Translations under genes and position numbers: made by a program | In this document: positions 964-60,936 of the stretch, one piece after another | How positions within the stretch are numbered: position 1 is the stretch's first letter | Layout of the letters: the number at the start of each line of letters is the position of its first letter | IMG/VR virus record: IMGVR_UViG_3300016476_000987 | Length of the DNA: 64,000 bases | Source of the DNA: a virus | Taxonomy: Duplodnaviria; Heunggongvirae; Uroviricota; Caudoviricetes | Reading direction: 5' to 3' (one strand) | The notes under the pieces: model-generated | The model's input: the letters and a program-made list of their open reading frames with translations, nothing else | The model's database searches: none | What the model was told of the DNA's origin: nothing

Positions 964-1491
964 ATGTACTATCCATTATCAGAAATAACTCCAGATTTAT
1001 ATACAGAGGGATCGGAATTTATATATAAGGATAGCAGCGCTCCTTATGCAGGATACTATTTTTCTACTACAGACGGAAGGTTTTATACAGAGAGGACCTT
1101 ACTCCCTACTTCTAAAGAAATAGTAAAGAGTTTCAATACGTTACCTCAGGATACAACTAATCCGGAACATGTTATTCCTCAACCTTCAGAAGCAGACTAT
1201 CAAGCCGGATACATAACCAGGTATGTATGCAAAAGAGTTAATTCCGGTATAGAAACCATGAGGGAAATAAGTAAAGAGGAGTATAATAGGATAAAACGGG
1301 ATCCTCTTTATAATAATGTGGAATTTAAATGGGTTATTGTAGGAAATACATTAGACGATTTTAGCAATCCAAAAATTCCCGTATACGGAATTATTCGCAT
1401 AAATAAGATAACTGTGAATAACTTGGAGCCCAAAATGCCAGGGATTAGCCAATTTTTTAAGAATTACGCAGAATTCGCCAAAGACCCTTAA
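964..1491 (+). CDS. hypothetical protein
   Basis: 175-aa ORF starting 5 nt after the upstream stop, same strand. No motif recognised. Confidence 0.6.
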   Translation: MYYPLSEITPDLYTEGSEFIYKDSSAPYAGYYFSTTDGRFYTERTLLPTSKEIVKSFNTLPQDTTNPEHVIPQPSEADYQAGYITRYVCKRVNSGIETMREISKEEYNRIKRDPLYNNVEFKWVIVGNTLDDFSNPKIPVYGIIRINKITVNNLEPKMPGISQFFKNYAEFAKDP

Positions 1492-1514
1492 CTTTGCTTC
1501 AAAGGTTGTGAAGC

Positions 1515-2852: not shown

Positions 2853-2881
2853 TTTTTTTATTGTTTAATTGATATTTATAT

Positions 2882-3310
2882 ATGTTATACGATGAAATAG
2901 ATGTTATAATTGACGATCAATTGAACAAACTTTTTTGTACATTTACGCAGAAGGATGATTTAGAAGAGACGATTACTAAAATCGGCTCAATGTATTCGGT
3001 TATTTATTCTAAAATTTTTGTTTTGGAGATCGCCGATAGCAGCGAATTTGTATGTACATATAATATTGAATCGGAAAACACAGATCGCTCCAAGATTATT
3101 CCTGGAACTATTCTGATGCATCGTAGAAAAGAGACTGATACCCTCTACACAATTAATTCTTTAAACCTTCTCATTGCCAGCCTAAATAATGGAGTAGTTG
3201 ATAAGACATTCAAAATCAACTGGTCCGATTATAGAAATAGTATCCTCCTCACCAGAGCTGGCCAATTCACCCAACTGAACACAAAAGTCCACAAGATTAT
3301 TGCTCTCTAA
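2882..3310 (+). CDS. hypothetical protein
   Basis: 142-aa ORF in a co-directional gene string. Confidence 0.55.
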   Translation: MLYDEIDVIIDDQLNKLFCTFTQKDDLEETITKIGSMYSVIYSKIFVLEIADSSEFVCTYNIESENTDRSKIIPGTILMHRRKETDTLYTINSLNLLIASLNNGVVDKTFKINWSDYRNSILLTRAGQFTQLNTKVHKIIAL

Positions 3311-3325
3311 GAGAGAAAAAATATT

Positions 3326-3355
3326 TTGCTATTCCAAACTGCTTTCTTATTTTTG
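3326..3355 (+). promoter_or_regulatory. candidate Bacteroidota-type promoter (-33 TTG / -7 TAnnTTTG)
   Basis: TTG at 3326-3328 and TATTTTTG at 3348-3355 with a 19-nt spacer. The -7 box ends 23 nt before the SSB start codon. Confidence 0.35.
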
Positions 3356-3378
3356 TAAACACTTAAAATTTAAATGCC

Positions 3379-4221
3379 ATGTCAAACATTGATTTGATCA
3401 AACAGCGCCTTCAGAAATTGCAATCGAAAACCTCAGACAGCAGCTCTCAGGTTGATTACTCCAAGATCTTTTGGAAACCGAAGTTGGGAACACAGATTGT
3501 TCGTATTGTTCCCCGTAAAGAAAACAGGGATTACCCCTTTGTAGAAGTTTCCTTCCATCAGTACAATGTCTTCAAAAAGAGCGTCTATTGCCTGGATGTT
3601 TTCGGAGAAGAGGATCCGGTGCTTCAATATCGGAAAGAGTTGTACAACGAAGGTACTCCAGAAGCCAAAGATCTGGCTAAAAAGATCGCCCCCCGCACTA
3701 AGTATTTTGCACAAGTAGTAGTAAGAGGAGAAGAGGACATGGGGACTCGTCTCTGGGAATTTAACAAGACTACTTACGAAAAGCTTCTTAGCATTATGGC
3801 TAACGAAGACTTTGGTGATGTTACAGACATTATTGATGGTACTGATCTTACGATTGAAGGGTATAAGGATACTGTTGCAATCGGAAAAAAGAATGTAGAG
3901 TACATCGCTGTAAACGTCACTCCTAAAAGAAGGACCTCTCCTCTTTCGGAAAATGCAGAACAAGCTAAGTCTTTCCTTGAAAATCAAAACAACATTCTTG
4001 AAGTCTATAAGAAGTTTACTTATGACGAAATCAAGACTATGTTGAAGAACTATCTTGTTCCGAAAGAAGACTCCGCTGAAGAACCTGTCGCTTCTGTCTC
4101 CGTAGCTGCTCCTGCTAAAGCATCGGCTATCATGGATGACGAAGATGATGAGCCTCCATTTCCGGTAGTAAAGAAGCAGTCCACTGCTCAGAAGTTTAAC
4201 GATATTTTTGACGAAGAGTAA
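3379..4221 (+). CDS. T4 gp32-like single-stranded DNA-binding protein
   Basis: N-terminal FWKPKLGTQIVRIVP resembles gp32 WKLKLD..IRFLP. Acidic C-terminal tail (MDDEDDEPPF...DIFDEE). Sits in the replication module. Confidence 0.75.
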   Translation: MSNIDLIKQRLQKLQSKTSDSSSQVDYSKIFWKPKLGTQIVRIVPRKENRDYPFVEVSFHQYNVFKKSVYCLDVFGEEDPVLQYRKELYNEGTPEAKDLAKKIAPRTKYFAQVVVRGEEDMGTRLWEFNKTTYEKLLSIMANEDFGDVTDIIDGTDLTIEGYKDTVAIGKKNVEYIAVNVTPKRRTSPLSENAEQAKSFLENQNNILEVYKKFTYDEIKTMLKNYLVPKEDSAEEPVASVSVAAPAKASAIMDDEDDEPPFPVVKKQSTAQKFNDIFDEE

Positions 4222-4232
4222 TCTCTAAACTT

Positions 4233-5336
4233 ATGGATGAAAAAAGAAGTGCAAAGAGCGGTCTAACAGCCGCTCTTTCTAAGAAGTCTAGTGCCTTTAG
4301 CCTAGATAATTTTAAGAAATCCAAAAACCTCACAGAAGGGTCTAAGTTTAAAAAGCAAGAGTGGATTCCTCTGTCTCCTGCTTTTAATTCTGCGATTGGA
4401 TTTCCAGGACTGCCTAAAGGACATATTACAGTAATTAGGGGCCATAGCGATACCGGTAAGACTACCGCTATGATTGAGACTGCAATCTCTGCTCAAAAAA
4501 TGGGCCTTCTTCCTGTATTCATTATTACAGAAATGAAATGGTCTTTTGAGCATGCCAAAGAAATGGGATTTGAAGTAGAAGCTATTCCGGATCCTGAGAC
4601 TGGAGAAGTTACCTACACTGGAGAGTTTCTCTACATAGACAGGTCTTCTTTGAATGTGATCGAAGATGTCTCTTCCTTTATCATTGATATTCTCAATGAA
4701 CAGAAAAAAGGAAACCTTCCTTACGATCTTGTATTCTTGTGGGACTCTGCCGGTTCTATCCCTTCTGCTCAATCAGTAGAAGCCAAGAAGAACAACGCTA
4801 TGTGGAATGCAGCAGCAATGTCTATTCAGTTTTCCAACTTTGTTAACCAGGAGTTTTCAATGTCTAGGAAGGCTAGTAGTCAATACACAAACACTTTCAT
4901 TGTCGTAAACAAGGTCAGAGTAGAATATCCGGTGTCAAATCCGATGGAGAAGCCTAAGCTTAGAAACAAAGGAGGCGATGTCATGTATTGGGATGCTACT
5001 CTTGTGATTACCTTCGGTAACATTACTAACTCTGGCGTGTCCAAAGTAGAGGCTACAAAGGATAAAAAGACGGTAGTGTTTGCCAAGAGGACTAAAGTTT
5101 CTGTTGATAAAAACCACATGACAGAATCAAATACCTCTTCTAGGATAGTTATGACAGCTCATGGCTTCATTGAAGACACTCCAACTGCTATTGAGAAGTA
5201 CAAAAAAGAGCATAGGCATGAGTGGCTTAAAGTTCTTGGAGAAGGAGACTTCGATGTGGTATTTGAGCCCGACATGCAGGAGGATATGAAACCCAGGTAC
5301 GAGAATGTTATTGATGATGAAATAGGAGATGAGTAA
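4233..5336 (+). CDS. RecA/RadA-superfamily recombination ATPase (UvsX/Sak4-like)
   Basis: Walker A in GLPKGHITVIRGHSDTGKTT and a Walker B-like LVFLWDSAG. Adjacent to the SSB and FEN genes. Confidence 0.65.
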   Translation: MDEKRSAKSGLTAALSKKSSAFSLDNFKKSKNLTEGSKFKKQEWIPLSPAFNSAIGFPGLPKGHITVIRGHSDTGKTTAMIETAISAQKMGLLPVFIITEMKWSFEHAKEMGFEVEAIPDPETGEVTYTGEFLYIDRSSLNVIEDVSSFIIDILNEQKKGNLPYDLVFLWDSAGSIPSAQSVEAKKNNAMWNAAAMSIQFSNFVNQEFSMSRKASSQYTNTFIVVNKVRVEYPVSNPMEKPKLRNKGGDVMYWDATLVITFGNITNSGVSKVEATKDKKTVVFAKRTKVSVDKNHMTESNTSSRIVMTAHGFIEDTPTAIEKYKKEHRHEWLKVLGEGDFDVVFEPDMQEDMKPRYENVIDDEIGDE

Positions 5337-6372
5337 CAGACTATTGGACATATTCTCTAAAGTCCAAAAAACAGAGAGACCTGCTAACATCCATGCTAAT
5401 AGCAGAGTGTTGATTGTGGATGGAATGAACACATTCTTGCGCAGTTTTGCAGTTGTTAATAGACTTAACCTTTTGGGTCATGAAATTGGAGGGTTAGTAG
5501 GTTTCTTTAAGTCTGTAGGTTCTGCTATAAAAACTATTAACCCGACCCGTGTTATCCTCGTTTTTGACGGGGAGGCCGGGTCGGCTAATAGGCGGTATCT
5601 TTATCCTGAGTACAAAGGAAATAGGCAGCATAATAGAATAATGAACAAAGTTCTATATCAAGATAGAGCTGTTGAGGATGATTCTAAGTATGAGCAATTA
5701 GTTCGTTTGGTAGACTACTTAGAGTATCTTCCGCTGCTAACTATTTCTTTAGACAATTTAGAAGCTGATGACATTATAGGCAATCTAGCATCTTTATCCT
5801 ACAATGGATTTTCTGATAGTGAGACTTATATCATGTCTTCAGACAATGACTTCATGCAGCTAGTAAATGATCGGGTTAGAGTGTATAGCCCTATAAAGAA
5901 AAAGATATATCAAGTAGATCATGTCCTTTCTGATTTTGGCGTACACCCAAATAATTTTGTTATTTACAAAGCTTTGATTGGAGATACTTCAGATAATGTT
6001 CCTGGCGTACAAGGAATAGGAGAGAAAAATGCTCCTAAGTTGTTTGAGTTCCTTTCTCAAAGCGATAGAAAAGACTTGGATTATTTATTTGAAGTATGTG
6101 CTAACCCTCCTAAAAAGTCTGTGCTTTATGATAGAGTACTGAATGTAAACAAAAATGTTGATATTTTTTATAGGATCATGGACCTAGTAAATCCTAATAT
6201 TTCAGATGAGTACAAAGAACTAATTAAAACAAAGTTTTATGATCCAATCCCCGAATTTAAAAAGCATGAGTTCATAAAGTTGTATAATTATGATAGAATG
6301 GGAGATGCTATCCCTAATTTGGATAGCTGGTTAAATGTTTTTATACCTTTGAATAATTATAGGCAGTTATGA
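5329..6372 (+). CDS. 5'-3' exonuclease / flap endonuclease (T4 RNase H / T5 D15 family)
   Basis: PIN-like motifs VLIVDGMN, VFDGEAGSANRRYLYPEYKGNR, LEADDIIG and SSDNDFMQL, plus the H3TH motif IGDTSDNVPGVQGIGEKNA. Confidence 0.9.
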   Translation: MSNRLLDIFSKVQKTERPANIHANSRVLIVDGMNTFLRSFAVVNRLNLLGHEIGGLVGFFKSVGSAIKTINPTRVILVFDGEAGSANRRYLYPEYKGNRQHNRIMNKVLYQDRAVEDDSKYEQLVRLVDYLEYLPLLTISLDNLEADDIIGNLASLSYNGFSDSETYIMSSDNDFMQLVNDRVRVYSPIKKKIYQVDHVLSDFGVHPNNFVIYKALIGDTSDNVPGVQGIGEKNAPKLFEFLSQSDRKDLDYLFEVCANPPKKSVLYDRVLNVNKNVDIFYRIMDLVNPNISDEYKELIKTKFYDPIPEFKKHEFIKLYNYDRMGDAIPNLDSWLNVFIPLNNYRQL

Positions 6373-10713: not shown

Positions 10714-11295
10714 ATGAATTACATAGGAGACATTTCAAAAAATGATTTTATAGTGCTGAAGCAAGCAGCGGAAATGTATAAAAACATATTAGAATTTGGA
10801 GTAGGCGCTAGCACTCAAGTTATATTGAATTATACTTCCGGTAATTTTTTATCAATTGATACATCATCAGAATGGGTAGATCTTACAAAAAAAAATTTGA
10901 GCTATCTTAATATAAACAAGCCTATAAACATGATGATGTACCATGAGTTTAAACCTTCATTAGACGATAGTTACGATTTTGTATTTAATGATGGAGTCGA
11001 TGAACTTAGATTAGAGTTTGGACTATCTATATTTCCATACATAAAAATTGGAGGCATAATAGCTTATCATGATACAAGGAGAAATAAAGATATACTAAAC
11101 GTAACAAGTCTTATAAATAAATACCATAATGAAATTGATCTTATTGAAGTAAATAAATATGGTTCTAATATTACAGTAATTAGAAAAAAGAAAGAGGAGC
11201 CTTACGAAGATTGGAACATTGCTGAAGGTAAGACTTATTTGAAAAAAGGAGGGTATATATTCAAAGACACTATTCCACCTCCTCATATGGCATAA
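10714..11295 (+). CDS. class I SAM-dependent methyltransferase-like protein
   Basis: Motif I-like ILEFGVGASTQVIL, followed by acidic FVFNDG and IIAYHD. Confidence 0.5.
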   Translation: MNYIGDISKNDFIVLKQAAEMYKNILEFGVGASTQVILNYTSGNFLSIDTSSEWVDLTKKNLSYLNINKPINMMMYHEFKPSLDDSYDFVFNDGVDELRLEFGLSIFPYIKIGGIIAYHDTRRNKDILNVTSLINKYHNEIDLIEVNKYGSNITVIRKKKEEPYEDWNIAEGKTYLKKGGYIFKDTIPPPHMA

Positions 11296-11333
11296 ATTGC
11301 TAAATATTCCTTACATTTGAAAAAACAATAATT

Positions 11334-11522
11334 ATGGATTGGTTACATTTTTGCTTATTTGCCCTATTGCTAGTTTCTGTAGGAGTGTTATTTTATTTCA
11401 ATAGCAGGCAAAATAAAATAAATACTGCTCTTTCTACATTTACTACCATCGCTAGTTTAGCTTTTGCAGAGGTGAAAAAAGAAATAGACGAACTTAAAGA
11501 AAAACTTGAAAAAAAACAGTAA
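11334..11522 (+). CDS. small membrane protein
   Basis: One hydrophobic helix (FCLFALLLVSVGVLFYF) followed by a charged coiled tail. Confidence 0.5.
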   Translation: MDWLHFCLFALLLVSVGVLFYFNSRQNKINTALSTFTTIASLAFAEVKKEIDELKEKLEKKQ

Positions 11523-11524
11523 CT

Positions 11525-11767
11525 ATGCAAGCAGGATCTTTAGTTTTATGCATTCAGGGATATCCTGGCCTTTTAGAAGAAGGGCAAATTTATACCGTTG
11601 ATTCTTTGGAAGAGCATGAGAGAACTAAAACTATAGGAGTATGGTTGTATGAAGTATCTCCTCCCCCTCCGCATCTAGGATTTTCCGTTCATCGATTTAT
11701 TGAAATTCAAGAACCTTTAGACGTTAACTCCTTAGTAAAAGATGTTTTATATGAAAGTAAAAATTAA
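11525..11767 (+). CDS. hypothetical protein
   Basis: 80-aa ORF starting 3 nt after the upstream stop. Confidence 0.5.
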   Translation: MQAGSLVLCIQGYPGLLEEGQIYTVDSLEEHERTKTIGVWLYEVSPPPPHLGFSVHRFIEIQEPLDVNSLVKDVLYESKN

Positions 11768-12176
11768 AAAACTACATCCTAACGCAGTAATTCCTAAATA
11801 CGCAAAGGAAGGAGATGCAGGACTAGACTTAGTAGCTACTGAGGTTTATGAAGACTCTGAGGATCGAATTACTTATGGAACTGGCGTAGCTATAGAAATC
11901 CCCGAAGCATATTTAGGTCTCCTCATGCCTAGATCTTCTGTGAGAAACTATGATCTTATTCTATCAAACTCTGTTGGACTTTCGGATAGCGGATATCGGG
12001 GGGAGATTATGGCTACTTTTAAAAAGACAAAAGGATTCTACAGCAAAGCGTATTTTCCAGGAGAGCGTATTGTTCAATTAGTTATACTACCTTACCCCTA
12101 TATTTCTTTTGAGGAAGTGGAAGAACTGTCTGATTCTGAGAGGGGAGCCACAGGGTTTGGTAGCTCAGGTAAATAA
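11751..12176 (+). CDS. dut: dUTP diphosphatase
   Basis: Motifs AGLDL, PRSS, GLSDSGYRGEI and ERGATGFGSSG. An alternative start exists at 11742. Confidence 0.92.
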   Translation: MKVKIKKLHPNAVIPKYAKEGDAGLDLVATEVYEDSEDRITYGTGVAIEIPEAYLGLLMPRSSVRNYDLILSNSVGLSDSGYRGEIMATFKKTKGFYSKAYFPGERIVQLVILPYPYISFEEVEELSDSERGATGFGSSGK

Positions 12177-12181
12177 TAGTT

Positions 12182-14485
12182 ATGTTTGATAAGAAGTATG
12201 TTTTGGTAAATAGTGAGGAATCGCTAATAGAAATGGTTTCTCATATTAAATCTTTTAATATTATATCTTTTGATACGGAAACTACTTCTTTAAATCCAAG
12301 GAAAGGCAATATAGTGGGATTGTCCGTATCTGCTGAAGTAGGGATAGGCTATTATATGCCTACTTATTTGATGAAAGAAGGAGAGCTTGTTGAAGCAGAA
12401 ATTGCCGGTACTTCTTGTAAAGAGTTAGCCAGAAAGACCTTTAACTTATTGAAAAAGAAAAAGTTAGTAGGTCATAATCTATCTTTTGACTGTAGGTTTG
12501 TTTATCACGAATATGGTATAGACTTAGTTCCAAGCATTTACGCTGATACTTTATTGTTAGTACACACAGTATCTGAAGAAGGTATTGGCGTAGGCGGATC
12601 TTTTGCTCTTAAAGAAATTGCTAAAGGCATACAAGAGCATATAGGATTAGACATGGATAAAGAGGCTAACGAAGAACAGATAGAACTGAAGGCCTCTATA
12701 AAAGCTAATGGAGGGTCTACTACTAAAGAAAACTACGAAATCTACAAGGCAGATATAGATATTCTGTGTAAGTATGCTTGCGCAGATACTGACTTGACTC
12801 TTAGGGTATTTAATCACTTCTCCGACATACTAAAGGAAGAAAAACTAGAGTCTTTCTTTTATGAAGAAGAGGTTATGCCTTTGTATAAAGAAGTAACCAT
12901 TCCTATGGAAATGAACGGAGTTCTATTAGATATAGAACTCATGGAATCATCTAGAAAAGAAATAAAAGAAGACCTAGCTAAATACAAAAAGTTAGTTATT
13001 TCAGAACTTCTTAAAGATGATAGAGTTAGGGATTGGGTAGTAGCGAAAGCCATAACAGAGTTCCCAACCAGCAATAAAGGGAGGTTTGTCCAAGAATTGA
13101 TAAAAGTAACCGGCCAGGAATTCCCAGTATCTGCTAAAACCGGAAAATACTTAGTAAATGCTACTAATGTAAAATTGTGTGCTAATGAAGAGACTAAAGA
13201 GTTTCTTCTTACGGGAGATCCTAGTCTTATAGATGAAAATCTGTCCCTTAAAATAAGCATATCTTTATGGAAGGAAACTCAAGACGGAGATTTCTTTAAC
13301 ATACAATCCAAAGATCATTTAGGTCAAATAGCTTTTACTGCACTAGGAATGACTCCTATATCTACTACAGATAAAGGAAAGGCTCAATTCGATGATGATT
13401 TTATTCAATCCATCTCTGATAAACATGAGTGGGCTAAGAACTTACGCATATACAATAAACTGCTGAAGATAAAGTCTACATACATGGACCGGTTCCTTGA
13501 AAAGCAAGAGAATGGGATGTACTACTTTTACTATAAGCAGCATGCCACAGTATCCGGAAGATATGGATCAGACGCTCAACAGCTACCCAGACCTAAAGAA
13601 GAAGGAGAAGAGGACCCTATTGTACTGAAATACAATAATCTTATACGGGCTTTCTTTATATCAAAACCAGGGAACGTGTTTATTGATTGTGACTATGAGT
13701 CTTTGGAGCCTAAAGTATTCTCTCATGTATCTGGAGATGAAGGATTAAAGGACATTTTTAAGAATAATTGGGACTTTTACTCTACGATTGCTATAAAAAC
13801 TGAGAAGCTGCATCAGTACTCACCTGACAAAAAGGCACCCAACTACCTAAAGAAACTGGCAAATGATGTAAGACAGAAGGCTAAGGCATACTCTTTGGGG
13901 ATTGCTTATGGCATGGGAGCCTATGCTTTAGGTAAAAATATCAACGTTTCTACCAAAGAAGCAGAGAAGCTTGTCGAAGGTTATCTAAATGGGTTTCCTG
14001 AATTGAAAAGGTGGATGGAAGAATCCAGAGAGTTTGTAAAGAAAAACGGCTATATTAAAACTCAAGTAGGAAGAGTTCGACATTTATCAAAAGTTTCCTA
14101 TCTTTACAAGAAGTTTGGAGATAATCTTTTAGAATGGGATTATCAAAGAAAGCTAGAAGAAAAGCTAGGTAAAGACTTGGTTGTGAATATGGTAAGGGAT
14201 TATAAGAACGGTTTGAATAATGCAATGAACGTACAGATTCAAGGCTTAGCAGCATCTATTGTTAATAGGTCTGCTATAGCTATAAACCGTGCTTTTAAAG
14301 AAGCCGGAATAAAAGGACAAGTAATTGCACAGATTCATGACCAGTTAGTTATGGAAGTAGAAGAGGCAAGAGCGGAGGAGGCATCTAAAATAGTACAGGA
14401 TAAGATGGAAAACACAATCAATCTTACTGTAGAATTGAAAGCTCCTCCTGCTCTTGCTCATAATCTTAGAGATGGTCATGGCTAA
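12182..14485 (+). CDS. family A DNA polymerase with 3'-5' exonuclease domain
   Basis: ExoI FDTETTSL, ExoII GHNLSFDCRF, ExoIII YACADTDLT. SGRYGSDAQQLPRP. Motif A DCDYESLEPKVF, motif B RQKAKAYSLGIAYGMG, motif C QIHDQLVMEV. Confidence 0.95.
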   Translation: MFDKKYVLVNSEESLIEMVSHIKSFNIISFDTETTSLNPRKGNIVGLSVSAEVGIGYYMPTYLMKEGELVEAEIAGTSCKELARKTFNLLKKKKLVGHNLSFDCRFVYHEYGIDLVPSIYADTLLLVHTVSEEGIGVGGSFALKEIAKGIQEHIGLDMDKEANEEQIELKASIKANGGSTTKENYEIYKADIDILCKYACADTDLTLRVFNHFSDILKEEKLESFFYEEEVMPLYKEVTIPMEMNGVLLDIELMESSRKEIKEDLAKYKKLVISELLKDDRVRDWVVAKAITEFPTSNKGRFVQELIKVTGQEFPVSAKTGKYLVNATNVKLCANEETKEFLLTGDPSLIDENLSLKISISLWKETQDGDFFNIQSKDHLGQIAFTALGMTPISTTDKGKAQFDDDFIQSISDKHEWAKNLRIYNKLLKIKSTYMDRFLEKQENGMYYFYYKQHATVSGRYGSDAQQLPRPKEEGEEDPIVLKYNNLIRAFFISKPGNVFIDCDYESLEPKVFSHVSGDEGLKDIFKNNWDFYSTIAIKTEKLHQYSPDKKAPNYLKKLANDVRQKAKAYSLGIAYGMGAYALGKNINVSTKEAEKLVEGYLNGFPELKRWMEESREFVKKNGYIKTQVGRVRHLSKVSYLYKKFGDNLLEWDYQRKLEEKLGKDLVVNMVRDYKNGLNNAMNVQIQGLAASIVNRSAIAINRAFKEAGIKGQVIAQIHDQLVMEVEEARAEEASKIVQDKMENTINLTVELKAPPALAHNLRDGHG

Positions 14486-14514: not shown

Positions 14515-15279
14515 ATGAATAATAACTACGTTGTTTACCAACATAGAAGATTAGATAATAATCAAATTTTTTATGTTGGACAAGGATTGTTAAGCAGAGC
14601 TTATCAAAATCAAGTGAACAGAAGAAACACTAATTGGATAAAAGTAGTCAAAGAAGCAGGAGGATTTATAGTAGATATATTAAAAGAAGGACTTAGTAAA
14701 GAGGAGTCTTTGATTATAGAATCTGAGTATATAAAAAAATATGGAACTATAAAACATAACACTGGAATTCTTGTAAATGAAAGACTGTCCGGGAGTAGAG
14801 GAGTAAAAAGTGGCTACACCCACTCTGAAGAAAAAAGAAAAGAGATAAGCGAAAAAACAAAAAAAGCCATGCAAAATCCGGAAACAAAAAAAAGATTAAT
14901 AGAAAGTCATTTAAAATATTGGGAAAATTCGGAAAATCATATAAAAGCTTCTATTTCTACTAAAGGAGTTCATGCTGGCAGTAAACACCCAATGTACGGT
15001 AAAACTCATTCGGAAGAGTCTAAAGATAAAATGTCAAAAGCTAAATTAGGAAAAAAAAGATCTTTAGAAGCAATTGAAAAATTAAAAAAAAGAATTCCTT
15101 GGAATAAAGGACTTAAAGGAGCATATAAACAAAAACAAGAGACTATAGAAAAAAGAAAAAATACTTTAAAAAATAGACCCTATACTCCTCAAAAAAAAGT
15201 AGAATGTCCTTATTGTAAATTAATAGGCGGTTTTACTAATATGAAAAGATATCACTTTGATAATTGCAAAAACAAATAA
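14515..15279 (+). CDS. GIY-YIG homing endonuclease with NUMOD3-like repeats
   Basis: N-terminal YVVYQH..IFYVGQG and a conserved Glu region ESLIIESEYI. Repeated GxTHSEExK segments (GYTHSEEKRKEISEK, GKTHSEESKDKMSKAK). C-terminal CPYC...FDNC. Lies directly after polA. Confidence 0.75.
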   Translation: MNNNYVVYQHRRLDNNQIFYVGQGLLSRAYQNQVNRRNTNWIKVVKEAGGFIVDILKEGLSKEESLIIESEYIKKYGTIKHNTGILVNERLSGSRGVKSGYTHSEEKRKEISEKTKKAMQNPETKKRLIESHLKYWENSENHIKASISTKGVHAGSKHPMYGKTHSEESKDKMSKAKLGKKRSLEAIEKLKKRIPWNKGLKGAYKQKQETIEKRKNTLKNRPYTPQKKVECPYCKLIGGFTNMKRYHFDNCKNK

Positions 15280-16075: not shown

Positions 16076-16285
16076 ATGGACAAACATTTTGCTGTATTAG
16101 TAGATGTTCCTACAAAAGGAGAAATGATGTTGTTTCTTGGTTACTATGAAGATAATAAAGAGCAAATGGATGAAAGATATGAAGAGGTATCTATGGATCT
16201 TCCATTAACTCCTATCCTTGATAAATTGAAATCACACAAGTATAAATTGTTTAAACAAAAAGAAATAAATAATGATCAAGACTGA
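16076..16285 (+). CDS. hypothetical protein
   Basis: 69-aa acidic ORF between groES and groEL, overlapping the groEL start by 14 nt. Confidence 0.45.
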   Translation: MDKHFAVLVDVPTKGEMMLFLGYYEDNKEQMDERYEEVSMDLPLTPILDKLKSHKYKLFKQKEINNDQD

Positions 16286-17945
16286 ATTTGGAAATGAGCT
16301 AAAAAGTAAACTGCTCAGCGGTATTTGTAAATTGAATGATAGCGTATCCTCTACTCTCGGTCCTGGAGGTAGAAACGTTATTATCCGGGATGAGGATGGC
16401 AACATTAAAGTAACGAAAGACGGAGTTACTGTAGCCAGGGCTTTCTCTAAGCTTGAGGATGATATTGAAGACATCGGTGCTCAGATGATCCGTAAAGTGT
16501 CTGAGAAGTCTGCTGATAAAGCAGGAGACGGTACTACAACCTCTACTCTCCTGGCTACTGTAATGGTAGAAGAAGGAATCAAAGTTATCACTCAGGGATG
16601 TAATGCCGTAGAAGTTAAAAAGGGTATTGACATTGGAGTAAAAAAAGTAGTAAGCCTTCTTAAAGAACTCTCAAGAGAAATCTCTTCTGATGATCAAATC
16701 AAACAAGTAGCTACTATCTCTGCCAATAACGATGTTGAAGTAGGAAATCTTATTGCAACAGCGATTGATAAAGTAGGTACTGACGGTGTTGTAGCTATTG
16801 AAGAATCTAAGACTGGTGAGACTTCTCTGGAAGTTGTTGAGGGTATGATGTTTGATCGTGGGTACAAATCCCCTTATTTTGTCACCAATCAGAATACTAT
16901 GCAAGCCGTTCTGGAAAAGCCACTTGTATTTCTGTATGATGGCAAAATAATGAACTCTAGCCAAGCAGTACCAGTTCTACAAGCAGCTGCTATGGAAAAT
17001 AGGCCCCTTCTTATTGTTGCGGAAGAAATCGAAGGAGAAGCCCTGGCTCTTCTTGTAGTAAATAAAGCTAATCAAACGATTAAGGTCTGTGCAGTAAAAG
17101 CTCCAGACTTTGGAGATCGTAGGACTGCTATTCTGGAGGACATCGCTATTCTAACCGGTGGAACTGTCCTGTCTCCTAACAAAGGTCACAAGCTTGATAA
17201 AATGAAGCCGACCGAGTTCAAAGCACATTTCGGAGAAGCAAGGGTAGTTAATGTTACTTCTAAAGACACTACAATCGTAGATGGAAAAGGATCAGCAGAG
17301 GCTATTGAGCAAAGACTGAACGAGATTAAGACTCAAATTGATATTGCTAAGTCTAATTTTGAGATTGAGAAACTTCAAGAAAGGTTGTCTAAACTTACTG
17401 GAGGAGTAGCTATCGTTAACGTAGGAGGTCTTAGTGAAGTGGAAATGAAGGAAAAGAAAGATCGTGTAGAAGATGCTCTTTACGCTACCAAAGCTGCGTT
17501 GGATCAAGGTATTGTCCCAGGAGGAGGAATGGCCCTTGTTATGTGCTCTTATAGGCTTCTTAAAGAAGCTATTACTGAGAACTCAGATCAACAAATTGGA
17601 GTTAGTATTGTATATAAATCATTAGTAGCTCCATTCAGAAAGATTATGCAAAATGCAGGGATTGAAGATTATCATTCTATGCTTAGTGAAATTCGTGATC
17701 TTAGAGTCGAGCATGAAAAGAAGCATCCCGAAGATCCTATGTTTCTCTGGTATGGATACAATGTGAAACTTGGAAATTTTGTTAACATGTATAAGGAAGG
17801 GATTATAGATCCGACTAAAGTAACTAGGACCGCCATAGAGAACGCAGCTAGCGTAGCCGGTACAATCCTTACTACAGAATCAGTAATCTTCTCAGTAGGA
17901 GAAAAAAAGAAAGAAGAAATTGATTACAGCCAATTCATGCAATAA
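16272..17945 (+). CDS. groEL: chaperonin GroEL (Cpn60)
   Basis: Full-length Cpn60 signature: [76 protein letters not shown]. The Gly-Met-rich C-terminal tail is absent. Confidence 0.97.
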
Positions 17946-52408: not shown

Positions 52409-52599
52409 TTCTTAAAGTTTTTATTGTAAAAATCGTTTACACCACAAATCAATGCTGTAAATCCTTGACTAAAACAAAACAAAGTAACAATATGTCCTCT
52501 ATCGATCCTAGTAGTAGGTTGTCCGTCAAAATAAACGTATTGCACCATCAAGCAAAAAATAATTGCCGATATAATATGAACAGTTAATCCCTTATTCAT
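52405..52599 (-). CDS. small membrane protein
   Basis: 64 aa with two hydrophobic segments. ATGA-type overlaps with both neighbours. Confidence 0.5.
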   Translation of the reverse strand: MNKGLTVHIISAIIFCLMVQYVYFDGQPTTRIDRGHIVTLFCFSQGFTALICGVNDFYNKNFKK

Positions 52600-52853
52600 T
52601 TCTTATAGTTTTTATTGTAATATTCTTTAGCGTTTGAGTAGTCAACCACGACCAGTCCATTTTTGCCAAGAGCGTGCCCATCTGTCCAAGCCATGCAGAT
52701 GTTCTGCTCTTCTCTTTGTTTGGCTTCGTTTTTTAATTTGTAGACCAATTCGGTTAGAGGTTTATTGTCACACAACAGTTTGTGATTTAATATATTATTG
52801 TGCGCTAACATCTCAAAGAACCATTCAACTGCGGTCATGTTATTCTTTTCCAT
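52596..52853 (-). CDS. TAVEW-family small protein, copy 1
   Basis: MEKNNMTAVEWFFEML...NEAKQREEQ...AKEYYNKNYKK. Start placed at the ATG inside TATGGAAAAGAATAA, which overlaps the upstream stop by 14 nt. Confidence 0.6.
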   Translation of the reverse strand: MEKNNMTAVEWFFEMLAHNNILNHKLLCDNKPLTELVYKLKNEAKQREEQNICMAWTDGHALGKNGLVVVDYSNAKEYYNKNYKK

Positions 52854-53136
52854 AAGTGTCGTTGTAGTATTGTTTACCACTGCCATAATTCGGCTCATAC
52901 CCATCTAATGTACCTTGTTCGTAGGCTTTTTCTATTTGTTTGTTCTCTATCTGTTTGGCTTGATTTATCAAGGCATCTAAAACTTCCCAATTTATCTCAC
53001 AAACCTGCGGGTTTCCATAATCTTCTAACTCTTTAGCTAACCATTCAACTGCTGTCATGTTAATGTTTTTTGTAATGTTTTTTAGTTCATACTCTTTCAA
53101 TAAAGCCATCATGTAATTCTCTGCTGATTGTAGCAT
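52840..53136 (-). CDS. TAVEW-family small protein, copy 2
   Basis: ..NINMTAVEWLAKELE...NQAKQIENKQIEKAY...GKQYYNDTYGKE. Confidence 0.6.
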   Translation of the reverse strand: MLQSAENYMMALLKEYELKNITKNINMTAVEWLAKELEDYGNPQVCEINWEVLDALINQAKQIENKQIEKAYEQGTLDGYEPNYGSGKQYYNDTYGKE

Positions 53137-53150
53137 GTGTATGTGTGTTG

Positions 53151-53381
53151 TTATTTATCGAATGTTTCTTTGTAGTATTGTTCCCAAGACTCCCAGACAG
53201 GGGGCATACCGTCATCGAGTGATTGTCTTGATTGTTTAAATGTTTCTTCATGTTGCTCCTTCTCCATTTGTTTTGCCTGTTCAAATTCACCCCTTACTTT
53301 CATTAAATGATGCAAATCATGTGATGTACTTTCAATCCTTTCTATTAACCATTCAACTGCTGTCATGTTATTTTGTTCCAT
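53151..53381 (-). CDS. TAVEW-family small protein, copy 3
   Basis: MEQNNMTAVEWLIERIE...EQAKQMEKEQ...WEQYYKETFDK. Start lies inside TATGGAACAAAATAA, overlapping the upstream stop by 14 nt. Confidence 0.6.
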   Translation of the reverse strand: MEQNNMTAVEWLIERIESTSHDLHHLMKVRGEFEQAKQMEKEQHEETFKQSRQSLDDGMPPVWESWEQYYKETFDK

Positions 53382-53871
53382 ATGTTTCATTATAATATTG
53401 TTCTCCGTTTAAAAAATTTCCATTATCATCTAGAAATACGTTATCATAAGCATTCAATAGTTGCTTCTTCTCCATTTGTTTTGCCTGTTCAAGTAGCTCC
53501 GAATAGTTTGTTTTTCCTTCCACTACTGTTTGATTATAGTACCAATCAACAGCACTAATTAGTTCTGTAGAAGGTTCCTCCGGTTGATCTAAGGCATTAA
53601 AGAAGATCTGAGCATCTCTTTCAGAGAAAAACTCAATGCTGTTTTTAGAACTATTTTCTACCGGATAATCTTTATTAAAATCTAAAGAAGGAATATAAGC
53701 CATACCGTGTTTAACTTCATAACGTACAAAAGGGAAGGATAGTATCCTGGCTTCTATATTATCAAACTTTTTTGATAGCTCTTCTATCTGTTTAACATTA
53801 TCATCGTGAAGAACTAGATTAGATTCTACTTCCCATTGATCAAATACTTTTTTAATTATACCGTCTATCAT
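53368..53871 (-). CDS. two-part protein whose C-terminal half is a TAVEW-family module (copy 4)
   Basis: C-terminal half LISAVDWYYNQ...EQAKQMEKKQLLNAY...GEQYYNETYGTK. Confidence 0.6.
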   Translation of the reverse strand: MIDGIIKKVFDQWEVESNLVLHDDNVKQIEELSKKFDNIEARILSFPFVRYEVKHGMAYIPSLDFNKDYPVENSSKNSIEFFSERDAQIFFNALDQPEEPSTELISAVDWYYNQTVVEGKTNYSELLEQAKQMEKKQLLNAYDNVFLDDNGNFLNGEQYYNETYGTK

Positions 53872-53882
53872 AGTAGTCTATT

Positions 53883-54116
53883 TTACATTTTTTCAATCTC
53901 TGCTTTTACTTGAGTCCAATATGTCCAACTTGTCTCATAATCAGTATTCATACTGGTAATGTTCCGAATAATTTCATTCACGGCTATCAACGCACACTTC
54001 TTTGTATACGGGTTAGTATAAACCGGTATATCATCCCCTCCGGTATAGTTTGTCAAATACGAGATAGATATGCCCATGGCATCGAACAACTCTATTGCCT
54101 TGTCTCTTGGTGTCAT
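53883..54116 (-). CDS. hypothetical protein, paralog of 59610..59837
   Basis: Shared pattern KAxELFD...ALIAVxEII...YWxQVKxEIE. Confidence 0.55.
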   Translation of the reverse strand: MTPRDKAIELFDAMGISISYLTNYTGGDDIPVYTNPYTKKCALIAVNEIIRNITSMNTDYETSWTYWTQVKAEIEKM

Positions 54117-58296: not shown

Positions 58297-58639
58297 TCTC
58301 TTTATTTATTTTGTCTAAGTCTTCTAAGTCTTCCTTCAATCTTCTTAAGAAACTATCGTCTCCATCATCACCACTCAATAACCAGTCAATCCTATGAGCA
58401 TATATCTCAGCCATACGAAGTATCTTTACTGCCTCTTTGAACTTCTCAATAACTTCATTGGGGTATTCGTAATGATATAACTCGTCTGGATACTTCTCAT
58501 ACCAATCCGGTAAATTCCAAGACTCTTCTTTTAGTTCTTCGGCAGTCTTCTTCCTACCATTCTTTTCTATATGATACTCTATATCATCAGCAATGTCCCC
58601 TATCTTGTATTGGTTATAGTCAAATCTTCCTCCCGACAT
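58289..58639 (-). CDS. hypothetical protein
   Basis: 116-aa ORF starting MSGGRFDYNQYKIGDIADDIE. Confidence 0.55.
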   Translation of the reverse strand: MSGGRFDYNQYKIGDIADDIEYHIEKNGRKKTAEELKEESWNLPDWYEKYPDELYHYEYPNEVIEKFKEAVKILRMAEIYAHRIDWLLSGDDGDDSFLRRLKEDLEDLDKINKENE

Positions 58640-58653
58640 AGCAACCTCCTTTT

Positions 58654-58938
58654 TTAGTTATTTAATAATTTAGTATAAGTTTCGTTGTAGTATTGTTCGG
58701 CATCCTCAAACGCTTTTGTTGTGCATCCGTATGTTTTATTGTTCAAACATCTGTTGTGGACATGCGACATTATTATCTGCTCCTTCTCCATTTGTTTGGA
58801 TTTTTGAACCGTCTCTCTGATTTCATCCCACCTATGTAATGGTATTTCACCTATCAATTCCGTACTTAATTTTCTTACCAACCATTCTACTGCCGTTATA
58901 GATTTATCGGAATTTCCGATTTTTTTTTGCTGTGCCAT
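58654..58938 (-). CDS. TAVEW-family small protein, copy 5 (MAQQ start)
   Basis: MAQQKK...SITAVEWLVRKL...QKSKQMEKEQ...AEQYYNETYTK. Confidence 0.6.
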   Translation of the reverse strand: MAQQKKIGNSDKSITAVEWLVRKLSTELIGEIPLHRWDEIRETVQKSKQMEKEQIIMSHVHNRCLNNKTYGCTTKAFEDAEQYYNETYTKLLNN

Positions 58939-58942
58939 GTGT
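58926..58942 (-). repeat. start-codon box copy 5 (coding strand ACACATGGCACAGCAAA)
   Basis: + strand tttgctgtgccatgtgt; the ATG is the start of 58654..58938. Confidence 0.9.
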
Positions 58943-58953
58943 CAAATTTTAAT

Positions 58954-59145
58954 TTAATCTAAAAGGGGACATATCCAAATTGGGCAAATAATTAGCCAAC
59001 ACATAAACCTTTCTTGCAGGCTAACGGCTAAATTATCTTGACCAATTTCTCTGCAATCTTTTTTCCAAATAAAATAGAATGGGATAAAAAAAACAAATTG
59101 CAATGATATACATATTATATATGCTACTATTGTTTGCTGTGCCAT
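58954..59145 (-). CDS. small membrane protein (MAQQ start)
   Basis: MAQQTIVAYIICISLQFVFFIPFYFIW... Confidence 0.55.
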   Translation of the reverse strand: MAQQTIVAYIICISLQFVFFIPFYFIWKKDCREIGQDNLAVSLQERFMCWLIICPIWICPLLD

Positions 59146-59149
59146 GTTA
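59133..59149 (-). repeat. start-codon box copy 4 (TAACATGGCACAGCAAA)
   Basis: + strand tttgctgtgccatgtta; the ATG is the start of 58954..59145. Confidence 0.9.
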
Positions 59150-59386
59150 TTTGTTTAATATTTGATCTCTCATCCATTTAGCACCGTATAAAAAAGATAC
59201 TCTTTCCTTAGGCCAGTCTGAAAATCCAAAAGATTTTTCTTCTATCTCCTCATCACTTGGTAGTTTAACTGGTCTAACATATTCATCGATGTATTCCATA
59301 ATATGTTTAGCATCAATCATAGACACCTCGCATCTCTCCGCTGCATGTAAAAACATTTCTTTTGTGTATAGTTTTTGCTGTGCCAT
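59147..59386 (-). CDS. hypothetical protein (MAQQ start)
   Basis: 79-aa ORF starting MAQQKLYTKEMF. Confidence 0.55.
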   Translation of the reverse strand: MAQQKLYTKEMFLHAAERCEVSMIDAKHIMEYIDEYVRPVKLPSDEEIEEKSFGFSDWPKERVSFLYGAKWMRDQILNK

Positions 59387-59390
59387 GTGT
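59374..59390 (-). repeat. start-codon box copy 3 (ACACATGGCACAGCAAA)
   Basis: + strand tttgctgtgccatgtgt; the ATG is the start of 59147..59386. Confidence 0.9.
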
Positions 59391-59393
59391 TAT

Positions 59394-59606
59394 TTAATTT
59401 ATTGGTTCGTCAGGAAGTGTTGTCCAATGGGTTACATCATCTAAAAAATTTTCAGATGATTCACTATAAAATCCTTTAACATCATCGTAATATTCAGCCA
59501 CTAACCAACGACTGTTTTTTGGAAAACTTTTTGGTGCGTAAACTAAAAAACTTCCATGTTCAACGTTTGGTAATTTTTCTTTCACACTAAATATTTGTTG
59601 TGCCAT
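59394..59606 (-). CDS. DUF551-like small protein (MAQQ start)
   Basis: MAQQIFSVKEKLP...VTHWTTLPDEP. Confidence 0.55.
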   Translation of the reverse strand: MAQQIFSVKEKLPNVEHGSFLVYAPKSFPKNSRWLVAEYYDDVKGFYSESSENFLDDVTHWTTLPDEPIN

Positions 59607-59610
59607 GTGT
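59594..59610 (-). repeat. start-codon box copy 2 (ACACATGGCACAACAAA)
   Basis: + strand tttgttgtgccatgtgt; the ATG is the start of 59394..59606. Confidence 0.9.
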
Positions 59611-59837
59611 TACAATATTTCTATCTCTTGTTTAACTTGTCTCCAATAATCAATCAAATCCAATAGTATATTACCTCTCACATCCACATCTCTAATATCC
59701 ATACTTAGAGTGTTAATTATCTCATCCACAGCTATTAATGCATAATTTTTAGTTCTGTCAACATACCATTGACTTCCTGCAATTTGATACTTATCAAATA
59801 ACTCTTTTGCTTTTTCTTTAGGTGTTTGCTGTGCCAT
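59610..59837 (-). CDS. hypothetical protein (MAQQ start), paralog of 53883..54116
   Basis: MAQQTPKEKAKELFD...ALIAVDEII...YWRQVKQEIEIL. Confidence 0.55.
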   Translation of the reverse strand: MAQQTPKEKAKELFDKYQIAGSQWYVDRTKNYALIAVDEIINTLSMDIRDVDVRGNILLDLIDYWRQVKQEIEIL

Positions 59838-59841
59838 ATGT
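59825..59841 (-). repeat. start-codon box copy 1 (ACATATGGCACAGCAAA)
   Basis: + strand tttgctgtgccatatgt; the ATG is the start of 59610..59837. Confidence 0.9.
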
Positions 59842-59903
59842 TTGTTTTTATCGCCTATTCATGGAATAATTTACAATTATCGCCTTAGAATATTACAGGT
59901 ATA

Positions 59904-59939
59904 AAACCGGACTCCATATAAAGTTATGAAGTCCGGTTT
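59904..59939 (-). terminator. intrinsic terminator after the DUF932-like gene
   Basis: A 10-bp stem AAACCGGACT / AGTCCGGTTT with a 16-nt loop. Read on the - strand, ACCGGACT..AGTCCGGT is followed by TTTTAT. It lies 14 nt downstream of the 59953 stop. Confidence 0.6.
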
Positions 59940-59952
59940 AAATTATAAAATC

Positions 59953-60936
59953 TTACTTAACCATTTCCAAAGCAAGATCAAAGGCTTTGCTGATCTTAGC
60001 AGCAGCCGTACCATAGTTAAGGTCTTTCATCCTCTGCTCAGCATTCTTATAGTCTTTGATGTGAGTATAATATCCGGAGATAGAATTATAAGCTCCCCAC
60101 AAAGTCTTATAAGCCGCCTCTGTTCTCTGAGTAGAATGAGTCATTGCAAAGTCAAAGACGGTGTCTGTAGTATTCTTAAGCTTAGTAGACAGCTCTTTAG
60201 CCTCAGCGCTTACAACTTCTCTTTCAACTTTCATGGCATTAGTAATAAACTCTTTGAACTCAAAGTCAGACAGTCTCTTCTGACTCATTCGATCAAAGAT
60301 AGTATTCACCTCTGTCATATACTTAGAAGCGATTCCCATGACCCTAGAAGCCTCTTTTAGCTTGCTTTCAGCAGATGCTGTGTGAGAGATGCTGACCTTA
60401 TTATCAAGGCCCTTAAGAGCTGCCTGGAGGGTGTTATTACACACTACTCGAATGGATGTAAACCCTGCAATAATAGTGGTAGATCCATCGTGAGAGTTAG
60501 TAAGAATAATATACTTCTCTACCTTTTCCCCATGGACCAACATATCTTCCGGAAGTTTGGCAGTAACGAAGATCTTCTCTCCGAGTCCCAAAGCACCGGC
60601 AGTCTCGAAGATAGCCTCACCCTGATCAATGATAGAGTCAAAGAAACCAAAAGCATCTTGATTCTGTACGATAGTGTACCTACCTTTAACAATTCCGAGA
60701 GGACTTCCGGTATCAGTCCTAACAGTAGAGAAGTGACCAGGAACCTCAACCAATCCTTTAGAAGGATCGTTTACATACAGAGGTCTTTTCTCTACTCTAT
60801 AGTCAAGACCACCGAGTCGGATAGCCTCCTCAGCTGTCATTGCTTTGTCAACATACTGGCCAAGACCATGCCATGCTTTTTCTCCTTTAGCTACGAAAGA
60901 CCATTTGTCGTTTGAGAAATTCAGATTGTGAGCCAT
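59953..60936 (-). CDS. DUF932 / phage-plasmid TIGR03299-like protein
   Basis: MAHNLNF...KAWHGLGQYVDKAMTAEEAIRLGGLDYRVEKRPLYV matches the family's N-terminal signature as I remember it. Confidence 0.7.
   Translation of the reverse strand: MAHNLNFSNDKWSFVAKGEKAWHGLGQYVDKAMTAEEAIRLGGLDYRVEKRPLYVNDPSKGLVEVPGHFSTVRTDTGSPLGIVKGRYTIVQNQDAFGFFDSIIDQGEAIFETAGALGLGEKIFVTAKLPEDMLVHGEKVEKYIILTNSHDGSTTIIAGFTSIRVVCNNTLQAALKGLDNKVSISHTASAESKLKEASRVMGIASKYMTEVNTIFDRMSQKRLSDFEFKEFITNAMKVEREVVSAEAKELSTKLKNTTDTVFDFAMTHSTQRTEAAYKTLWGAYNSISGYYTHIKDYKNAEQRMKDLNYGTAAAKISKAFDLALEMVK

Follow-up and report, generated by a model that had tools for sequence, protein, structure and literature searches.

A start-codon box repeated across five unrelated genes of a large metagenomic phage, a candidate portable intercistronic linker

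A box spanning the start codons of five consecutive genes

This study concerns a 17-nucleotide (nt) box, ACAYATGGCACARCAAA, that occurs five times in a 64-kb window of the IMG/VR record IMGVR_UViG_3300016476_000987 (the window being the whole stretch of DNA that was analyzed). Each copy spans the ATG of one of five consecutive minus-strand genes, numbered 1 to 5 here. The source contig is approximately 184 kb long and derives from a large phage, and the window has a GC content of 34.7%. An earlier sequence-only reading reported that these five open reading frames (ORFs) all begin with MAQQ. They are present as described, and no other MAQQ start is found among the approximately 115 ORFs of the window. 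The genes and box copies are located as follows.

59610..59837, minus strand: gene 1, 75 amino acids (aa), MAQQ followed by TPKEKAKELF, match to phrog_21441 from residue 6
59394..59606, minus strand: gene 2, 70 aa, DUF551-like (Pfam E value, 2.8e-6), MAQQ followed by IFSVKEKLP
59147..59386, minus strand: gene 3, 79 aa, MAQQ followed by KLYTKEMF
58954..59145, minus strand: gene 4, 63 aa, predicted membrane protein, MAQQTIVAY
58654..58938, minus strand: gene 5, 94 aa, TAVEW-family protein with a 10-residue insertion (KKIGNSDKSI) between MAQQ and TAVEW
59825..59841, minus strand: box copy 1, ACATATGGCACAGCAAA, spanning the gene 1 ATG
59594..59610, minus strand: box copy 2, ACACATGGCACAACAAA, spanning the gene 2 ATG, with the gene 1 stop codon 3 nt upstream
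59374..59390, minus strand: box copy 3, ACACATGGCACAGCAAA, spanning the gene 3 ATG
59133..59149, minus strand: box copy 4, TAACATGGCACAGCAAA, spanning the gene 4 ATG
58926..58942, minus strand: box copy 5, ACACATGGCACAGCAAA, spanning the gene 5 ATG

Copies 3 and 5 are identical 17-mers, copy 4 begins with TAAC, copy 2 carries CAA in place of CAG, and copy 1 has ACAT. When the 15-mer core ACATGGCACARCAAA was searched with up to two mismatches, five matches were obtained versus 0.23 expected from shuffled sequences, and none of 100 shuffles reached five. With up to three mismatches allowed, the full 17-mer matched only those five sites on the two strands (0.13 expected), all at ATGs and none in a non-start context. 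In addition, a direct-repeat search recovered the box copies as families, with spacings of 207, 241, 220, and 231 nt.

The proteins themselves share nothing further: similarity in BLASTP is confined to residues 1 to 5, with none past them, in agreement with the claim that they are unrelated beyond the shared start. They fall into distinct families, without the homologous bodies of a simple tandem paralog array. The family assignments proposed from the sequence, DUF551-like for gene 2 and TAVEW for gene 5, were borne out by the Pfam match and by homologue comparison, respectively. Gene 1 does have a paralog at 53883..54116 (36% identity), and this alignment begins at residue 5.

In related loci and contigs (designated with L-numbers), the conserved unit is longer than 17 nt. 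It adds the A/C-rich end of the upstream ORF and its stop codon, giving the consensus junction AAACAAATAA(A)C(T)/ATGGCACAACAAAC, where the slash marks the start of the downstream gene; this longer unit is referred to as the linker below. Within it, ATGGCAC is an invariant core that is kept where the encoded residues change. The proposed 17-nt extent therefore applies to the window, where conservation upstream of the boxes ends at about -10, but not to the relatives. Likewise, the box is independent of the distance to the upstream stop codon in the window, but in the relatives the stop lies 1 to 3 nt before the ATG, inside the conserved junction. Copy 4 and its upstream sequence CAAATATTAAACAAATAAC form a 33-nt junction in common with L121. 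Copy 1 has no ORF before it, yet its upstream spacer, AAAAACAAAC, is similar to the linker consensus.

Origin of the box and mosaic joints at its copies

The sequence ATGGCACARCAA is the native 5' end of a multicopy phage family, MAQQTAVEWL...MEKEQI...EQYYNETY, which is found in tandem arrays. Scanning IMG/VR for the exact 15-mer returned mostly single chance matches. The informative search was a scan for two boxes 211 to 241 nt apart, which yielded 14 contigs, mostly with tandem MAQQTAVEW paralogs and the junction ...TATAACAAATAA(A)CT/ATGGCACAACAAACAGCAGTAGAATGG. Because these contigs mostly carry such paralogs with the same junction, the box is the native 5' end of the TAVEW family and not an element of independent origin. 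Among the best 120 homologues of gene 5, the residues before TAVEW are MAQQ in 18, MKQT in 18, MEQQ in 8, and others in the remainder, and the 18 starting with MAQQ are mostly MAQQTAVEW. MAQQ is thus one lineage's version of the TAVEW N terminus. The AlphaFold model of the TAVEW protein is a three-helix structure (pLDDT, 75) for which Foldseek found no match in PDB, and the protein has no Pfam or PHROG match.

Two further features of the window serve as comparators.

52596..53871, minus strand: second cluster of TAVEW paralogs, with junctions AAATAAC/ATG/ACAGCAGTTGAATGG
53883..54116, minus strand: gene 1 paralog, with native start MTPRDK, sharing the AAATAAC/ATG part of the linker but not GCACARCAA

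The junction of the second TAVEW cluster corresponds to the linker minus the 9 nt GCACARCAA. One junction in this part of the window (52596-54116) reads ACACATGCTACAATCAGCA and is possibly a decayed box.

Homologues of genes 1 to 3 elsewhere mostly lack the MAQQ prefix. The gene 1 family starts with MTPKEK in 94 of 120 homologues and with MAQQTPKEK in 4. The gene 3 family starts with MKLYT in 81 of 120 and with MAQQKLYT in 17, with occasional MAQK, MAQH, MVHQ, and MSQH, and the gene 2 family starts with MTEIF, MNEIF, or MIEIV in twelve other contigs. The native start sequences are ATGACACCAAAA... for gene 1 and ATGAAACTA... or ATGAAACTATAC... for gene 3. Prefix-less relatives align to gene 1 from position 59825 (5 loci) and to gene 3 from position 59374 (approximately 60 loci), in both cases the first base after the 12-nt ATGGCACAGCAA; those of gene 2 align from 59596 (8 loci), two bases earlier. 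Gene 4 has a homologue in L058 that starts MAQQTAVEF, a TAVEW-type 5' end fused to the membrane segment. In addition, MAQC, MAQL, and MALT variants keep ATGGCAC while their residues are altered. The claim that conservation acts at the nucleotide level, and not through protein homology, is upheld by the prefix-less homologues of genes 1 to 3 and by the persistence of ATGGCAC through residue changes. At the level of sequence comparison, these starts demonstrate that the copies share a common origin and were grafted onto at least four unrelated families.

The same behavior is seen in other contigs. On the minus strand of L140 (IMGVR_UViG_3300042349_000730), nine consecutive unrelated genes of 50 to 173 aa, at approximately 1045 to 3394, start on AATAAC/ATGGCACAAC (encoding MAQQ, MAQC, or MAQL), which makes this contig a stronger instance of the shared-start phenomenon than the window. 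In L135, four to six consecutive genes start on the linker, and the upstream ORFs all end in NK before the stop codon. Other lineages have grafted TAVEW-type prefixes of their own, including MSNNKQS onto MKLYTKEDF, MSNDKQS onto MKLYT, MENKLTAV onto KLYT, and MEKKQTA onto MTPKEKAEEL with the native Met kept; the native ATG also persists in forms such as MSNNKQS joined to MKLYT. Overall, TAVEW and non-TAVEW ORFs share at least 15 nt of 5' sequence in 11 within-locus cases, versus 2 in a between-locus control.

The boxes also coincide with the ends of homology between relatives. For 324 nt, ending 7 nt inside the box, L121 matches L257 at 98% identity, after which the two continue into different, unrelated genes. 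Between the window and L121, 95% identity is limited to the segment running from -6 of box 2 to +28 of box 3, and in several other contig pairs homology starts at -2/-1 or ends at +13 to +29 of a box. Two upstream flank types, the C terminus of the gene 3 family (GAKWMRDQILNK, then a stop codon) and the end of a 90-aa gene, are joined via CAAATAYTAAACAAATAAC/ATGGCACA to five different downstream bodies, namely, gene 4, another membrane protein, TAVEW, MAQQTALQQ..., and the gene 3 family. Across 22 loci, the endpoints of high-scoring segment pairs within -25 to +30 number 0.85 per box start versus 0.10 per other gene start, an eightfold difference.

Box copies also resemble each other more closely within a genome. 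Identity of the box flanks is 0.75 within genomes versus 0.63 between them (permutation P value of approximately 2e-4), and the box comes in genome-specific flavors: ACAC/ATGGCACAGCAAA in the window, TAAC/ATGGCACAACAGA in L140, and AAACT/ATGGCACAACAAAC in L135. As judged from these alignments, the boxes are shown to mark mosaic joints and their copies to be homogenized within genomes, a pattern of concerted evolution. These comparisons lend direct support to the recombination-linker role suggested for the box from the window sequence: homology breaks at the box, flanks and gene bodies occur in mixed combinations, and within a genome the copies have been homogenized. The proposed check for shuffling of cassettes among relatives likewise had a positive outcome, with the same flank and box joined to different genes.

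One candidate swap, between window gene 3 and a 107-aa gene of L121, was rejected, as these are diverged orthologues with indels. The additional 90-aa gene of L121 resembles a simple indel between CAAATA repeats. Close relatives carry box variants with a GTG start, TCA, or CAT, as well as a decayed in-frame internal copy in a fused ORF. In L256 (2669-2992), a 107-aa ORF has an N-terminal module, MSQQNKDEQKKLL..., fused in frame to a DUF551 gene; the fusion passes through a decayed box, GTGGTACAACAA (VVVQQ), and this N-terminal module also stands before the TAVEW domains of P0052 and P0054.

Initiation context and explanations for the box

The phage makes little use of the Shine-Dalgarno (SD) sequence: an SD core is present at only 6 of 115 window genes, and genome-wide, A accounts for 62 to 72% of bases at -12 to -10. 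Initiation regions of Bacteroidia, as described for Flavobacterium johnsoniae, are enriched in A at -14 to -11, have low structure near the start, and lack an SD, and A at -3 and -6 is a positive determinant of initiation (PMC6847099). The first part of this pattern, an absent SD with an A-rich tract at about -14 to -11, is found here. A occupies both -12 and -13 in copies 2 and 3, only -12 in copies 1 and 5, and neither position in copy 4. The second part is not found, as four of the five copies have C at -3, and at -6 three have T and two have A. C at -1 and -3 is atypical, occurring at 8% and 10% of genes in this genome, respectively. General selection on start context therefore does not explain the box, but copying does. 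The mean unpaired probability of the five box starts, which are non-independent copies, is 0.75 versus 0.60 at other starts (P = 0.01), and their A+C content is 0.74 versus 0.58.

Codon use was counted in 1.07 Mb of loci found by box-independent protein patterns (L121-L133 and L146-L308), which contain 20 distinct MAQQ ORFs. All 20 use GCA for Ala, and 19 of the 20 use CAA for the second Gln; for the first Gln, 14 have CAA and 6 have CAG, which is the background ratio. In the same loci, GCA encodes Ala as second codon in 98 of 125 ORFs (78%) versus 41% of all Ala codons, an indication that these phages favor AUG GCA in general. The GCA and CAA counts are suggestive of selection on the nucleotides, confounded as they are by shared descent and by this general second-codon preference.

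In somewhat higher-GC lineages, the stereotyped junction is AAGGAGGTAACAAATGAGCAAC, in which an SD is encoded by the C-terminal Gly-Gly codons of the upstream ORF. An SD core precedes 38% of starts in these SD-using contigs versus 2% in MAQQ-type contigs. Since the junction of the SD-using relatives bears GGAGG, the junction would carry an initiation signal suited to each lineage, which is the strongest, though indirect, reason to regard the MAQQ linker as a functional initiation or re-initiation region. The SD-independent initiation role that had been suggested for the box thus gains indirect support from the SD-poor contigs, the A/C-rich accessible context, and the GGAGG junction. In L231, L237, L239, L245, L300, and other loci of the gene 3 family, unrelated ORFs end in GGNK, GGDK, or GGEQ before the stop codon; GGAGGT (Gly-Gly) is the Shine-Dalgarno sequence of the next gene, and stop and start overlap (ATGA). 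In L307 (VFQS010009379.1), positions 1 to 2840 hold approximately 17 tandem paralogs of 50 to 68 aa starting MNNKIEL..., and the junction GATGAACAATAA is read in two frames, as the ...DEQ end of the upstream gene and as MNNK of the downstream gene.

Taken together, we consider it probable, though well short of certain, that the box belongs to a portable intercistronic linker that acts as a recombination joint and probably as an SD-independent initiation module. The linker would comprise the final, A/C-rich codons of the upstream ORF with its TAA, a spacer of 1 to 7 nt, the ATG, and the 9 nt GCACARCAA. It would have originated as the junction between tandem TAVEW paralogs with the native N terminus MAQQTAVEW, and recombination would then have placed it before unrelated small genes in this lineage. 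The events could have been crossovers between linker copies, together with occasional microhomology or illegitimate joins just after the linker, replacing the recipient's native start codon with ATG and GCACARCAA. Once linkers lie on either side of a gene, they offer 17 to 33 nt of identity with which a UvsX-type system could delete, duplicate, convert, or exchange cassettes. The window encodes candidate genes for such a system.

3379..6372, plus strand: phage recombination genes, comprising SSB (3379-4221), a UvsX-like recombinase (4233-5336), and an exonuclease (5329-6372)

These three predicted products should give the phage the capacity for frequent homologous recombination, and the box itself may be a substrate for the UvsX-type system. 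Recombination mediated by the linker would lead to mosaic breakpoints on the boxes and to homogenization within genomes. The linker would be retained as an unstructured, A/C-rich SD-independent initiation or re-initiation region in a phage almost without SD sequences, the box presumably promoting initiation.

Several points weigh against this interpretation. Crossovers inside the box are a proposal from sequence comparison. Random illegitimate recombination followed by selection also predicts breakpoints at gene boundaries, but not identical junctions. An identity of 17 nt is short for efficient homologous recombination, and only some junctions reach approximately 33 nt. Box/second-codon joins show only 1 to 3 nt of microhomology, such as the ACA Thr codon common to MAQQ-T-AVEW and M-T-PKEK, which implies that the first grafts were illegitimate or microhomology events and not ordinary homologous exchange. 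Furthermore, most orthologues function without the box, the box lacks the favored A at -3 and so is not simply an optimal start context, the accessibility difference comes from a small set of related copies, and the related loci were partly picked for containing boxes.

A more ambitious interpretation, which we regard as doubtful, is that a single element combines SD-independent termination-reinitiation, an operator for coordinate translational control of the block, and a homology patch for cassette exchange. If true, the linker would be a dedicated, lineage-tuned connector for small accessory genes of Bacteroidota phages and a translational counterpart, under active selection, of the promoter-early stem-loop (PeSL) cassettes considered below, with SD-using sister lineages carrying the GGAGG version.

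T4 RegA operators are sequences that overlap the AUG of several phage genes, and by analogy the box could be a translational operator bound by a RegA-like protein, encoded by phage or host, or by a small RNA that coordinately represses or activates the block, with regulation preserving the sequence. Near-exact nucleotide conservation across the AUG of consecutive genes fits such a role, as the box overlaps the initiation codon of all five. The persistence of the ATGGCAC core, the GCA and CAA counts from box-independent loci, and the C at -1 and -3 left unexplained by general start context fit it as well, and the genome-specific flavors could reflect coevolution with a genome-specific binder. 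However, the sites of RegA are degenerate and spread across many early transcripts, unlike the near-identical boxes, which form one contiguous block in the window, L140, L135, and L121. When both strands of the window were scanned for duplexes, only the trivial complement emerged (best non-self duplex, -17.9 kcal/mol; shuffles, -16 to -22), and no credible Rfam match was obtained. Approximately 30 of the approximately 115 window proteins were scanned against Pfam or PHROGs, and none is a translational regulator, although no search was aimed at RegA homologues. Orthologues occur in many phages without the box, and the GTG, TCA, and CAT variants and the decayed in-frame internal copy persist in intact ORFs. 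An operator also does not predict the enrichment of breakpoints, and we consider this explanation unlikely.

The box might instead be purely an initiation enhancer, a very good SD-independent start that selection has fixed repeatedly, with recombination incidental. This fits the SD-poor genome with its Bacteroidia-type A tract (PMC6847099), the higher accessibility and A+C content of box starts, the 78% GCA among Ala second codons, and the SD-bearing junction that holds the same positional role in SD-using relatives. Yet for at least four families to converge independently on an identical 15- to 17-mer is implausible unless it was copied, starts in this genome rarely carry C at -1 and -3, and the favored A at -3 (PMC6847099) is absent. 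Moreover, most window genes and most orthologues elsewhere do without the box, and selection alone would leave the within-genome flavors and the breakpoints unexplained, which leaves this account a small chance of being right.

It is very improbable that the box is a passive, decaying relic without a present role, left from a tandem TAVEW array in which each gene body in turn was replaced. Its derivation from TAVEW, the mutated variants in relatives, and the first Gln wobble at background ratio are what such a relic should show. However, the copies are near-identical despite unrelated gene bodies, the pattern is maintained in several diverged phages (up to nine copies in L140), and homogenization within genomes needs ongoing exchange or selection. 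Finally, a protein-level tag, with the (M)AQQ peptide selected for processing, stability, or targeting, would fit the MAQQ common to all five proteins and to many in relatives, and an Ala as second residue would permit the initiator Met to be cleaved off, but this is scarcely credible given conservation that runs upstream of the ATG into the spacer and another gene's frame, nucleotides that stay fixed while residues vary (MAQC, MAQL, and MALT), an Ala codon that is always GCA, different peptides in the same role in other lineages (MSNNKQS and MEKKQTA), and orthologues without MAQQ.

Comparison with known systems and surroundings of the block

Functionally, the linker is closest to the PeSL cassettes of T4-type phages (Arbiol et al., 2010, PMC2839356; Comeau et al., 2014, PMC4122927), yet it does not belong to the PeSL family. 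In both, short repeats flank small, nonessential ORFan-type genes in variable regions of large lytic, UvsX-encoding phages, and bring an expression signal to each incoming gene. PeSLs bound indels and replacements between relatives, and the excess of homology endpoints at box starts conforms to this. However, PeSLs are approximately 100-bp intergenic, transcriptional elements with a sigma-70-like promoter and a terminator hairpin, and they excise as mini-circles with one chimeric repeat. The linker measures 17 to 33 nt, has neither the promoter nor the stem-loop, overlaps the upstream stop and the downstream start, adds three sense codons, and would be a translational signal.

Whether short linkers guide phage mosaicism, or random joining and selection produce it, is a long-standing question that is still unsettled. 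Boundary "linker" sequences are reportedly part of the modular theory of phage evolution of Susskind and Botstein. In the linker idea, short homologous patches at gene borders target recombination so that nonhomologous modules are swapped in register (PMC3974807). Classical examples are rare and debated, and the view that prevails invokes random illegitimate recombination with subsequent selection. In contrast to these examples, as many as nine copies of the linker described here follow one another, part of its sequence is coding, and its source can be identified as a tandem multigene family. With five to nine repeats in a row, a traceable source, orthologues with and without the box, and sister lineages with different sequences, it represents an unusually clean case. 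It is a clear, generalizable example that makes the linker hypothesis testable; on present evidence it is not a new class of mechanism.

The resemblance to Bacteroidia initiation regions (Baez et al., 2019, PMC6847099) lies in the SD-less genome, the upstream A enrichment, and the low structure at starts. It differs in that the Bacteroidia determinants lie upstream of the AUG, and most of the box lies downstream. Similar to integrons, the block is an array of unrelated, promoterless small genes with a recurring separator sequence, but its junctions and the position of the repeat set it apart from an array of integron type. The attC sites stand at the 3' end and contain an imperfect inverted repeat, and the box stands at the 5' start, with inverted repeats absent from the junctions. 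Among the large window ORFs scanned against Pfam and PHROGs, a search that was not exhaustive for the window, no integrase was found. Two broader implications follow from the grafted starts: in SD-less hosts, a new gene can obtain a functional start by taking over the opening codons of a resident gene, and identical N termini in neighboring phage ORFs need not mean homology, a caution for annotation.

Immediately upstream of the block, after a DUF932 gene, lie the following features.

59904..59939, minus strand: hairpin after the DUF932 gene and before the block, with 15-nt arms (93% complementary) and a 6-nt loop
59842..59903, minus strand: noncoding spacer with two AGGCGATAA repeats, at 59848-59856 and 59877-59885

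The hairpin had been read as a terminator preceding the block; the inverted repeat is real and this function is likely, but a terminator scan did not call it. The two direct repeats reported in the spacer were both located; they flank TAATTGTAAATTA, between the hairpin and the first box. The spacer may be a promoter or operator of the block, and it contains no convincing sigma-70-type site and no match to the Bacteroidetes -7 motif (TAnnTTTG). A promoter scan of 58400-60100 gave 7 sites versus 8.6 expected, none at boxes 2 to 5. Leaderless transcripts from a promoter at each box were rejected, as the upstream flanks are unconserved and promoter-like sites are lacking at the boxes. No inverted repeats occur at the boxes or junctions, and the sole hairpin precedes the whole block.

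Neither a megablast of the region nor tblastn with the TAVEW protein and gene 3 gave a match in 50,697 isolated phages, and the DUF932 neighbor matches only distant phages, at less than 36% identity. By these comparisons, the phage group is known from metagenomes only. Of 14 TAVEW matches in genome bins, 10 are in metagenome-assembled genomes of Bacteroidota. This is only suggestive of Bacteroidota as the probable hosts, because phage contigs are often misbinned.

The Pfam and PHROGs scan of large window ORFs identified PolA, ribonucleotide reductase (RNR), DnaB, ThyA, and a GroEL-like chaperonin. A homing-endonuclease-like ORF beside the PolA gene and the chaperonin are encoded at 14515-15279 and 16272-17945. 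Within the codons of the gene 5 insertion lies a perfect palindrome, ATCGGAAATTCCGAT (58906-58920), which is followed by a T run on the plus strand and scores as terminator-like. The insertion peptide is conserved in several database homologues (P0062, P0069, P0070, P0079, and P0113). In L137, an unrelated IMG/VR contig found only via the box core, GTAAATGGCACAG(C/G)AAC recurs every 120 or 240 nt right after stop codons (11270-12950), and is probably a tandem repeat inside another element.

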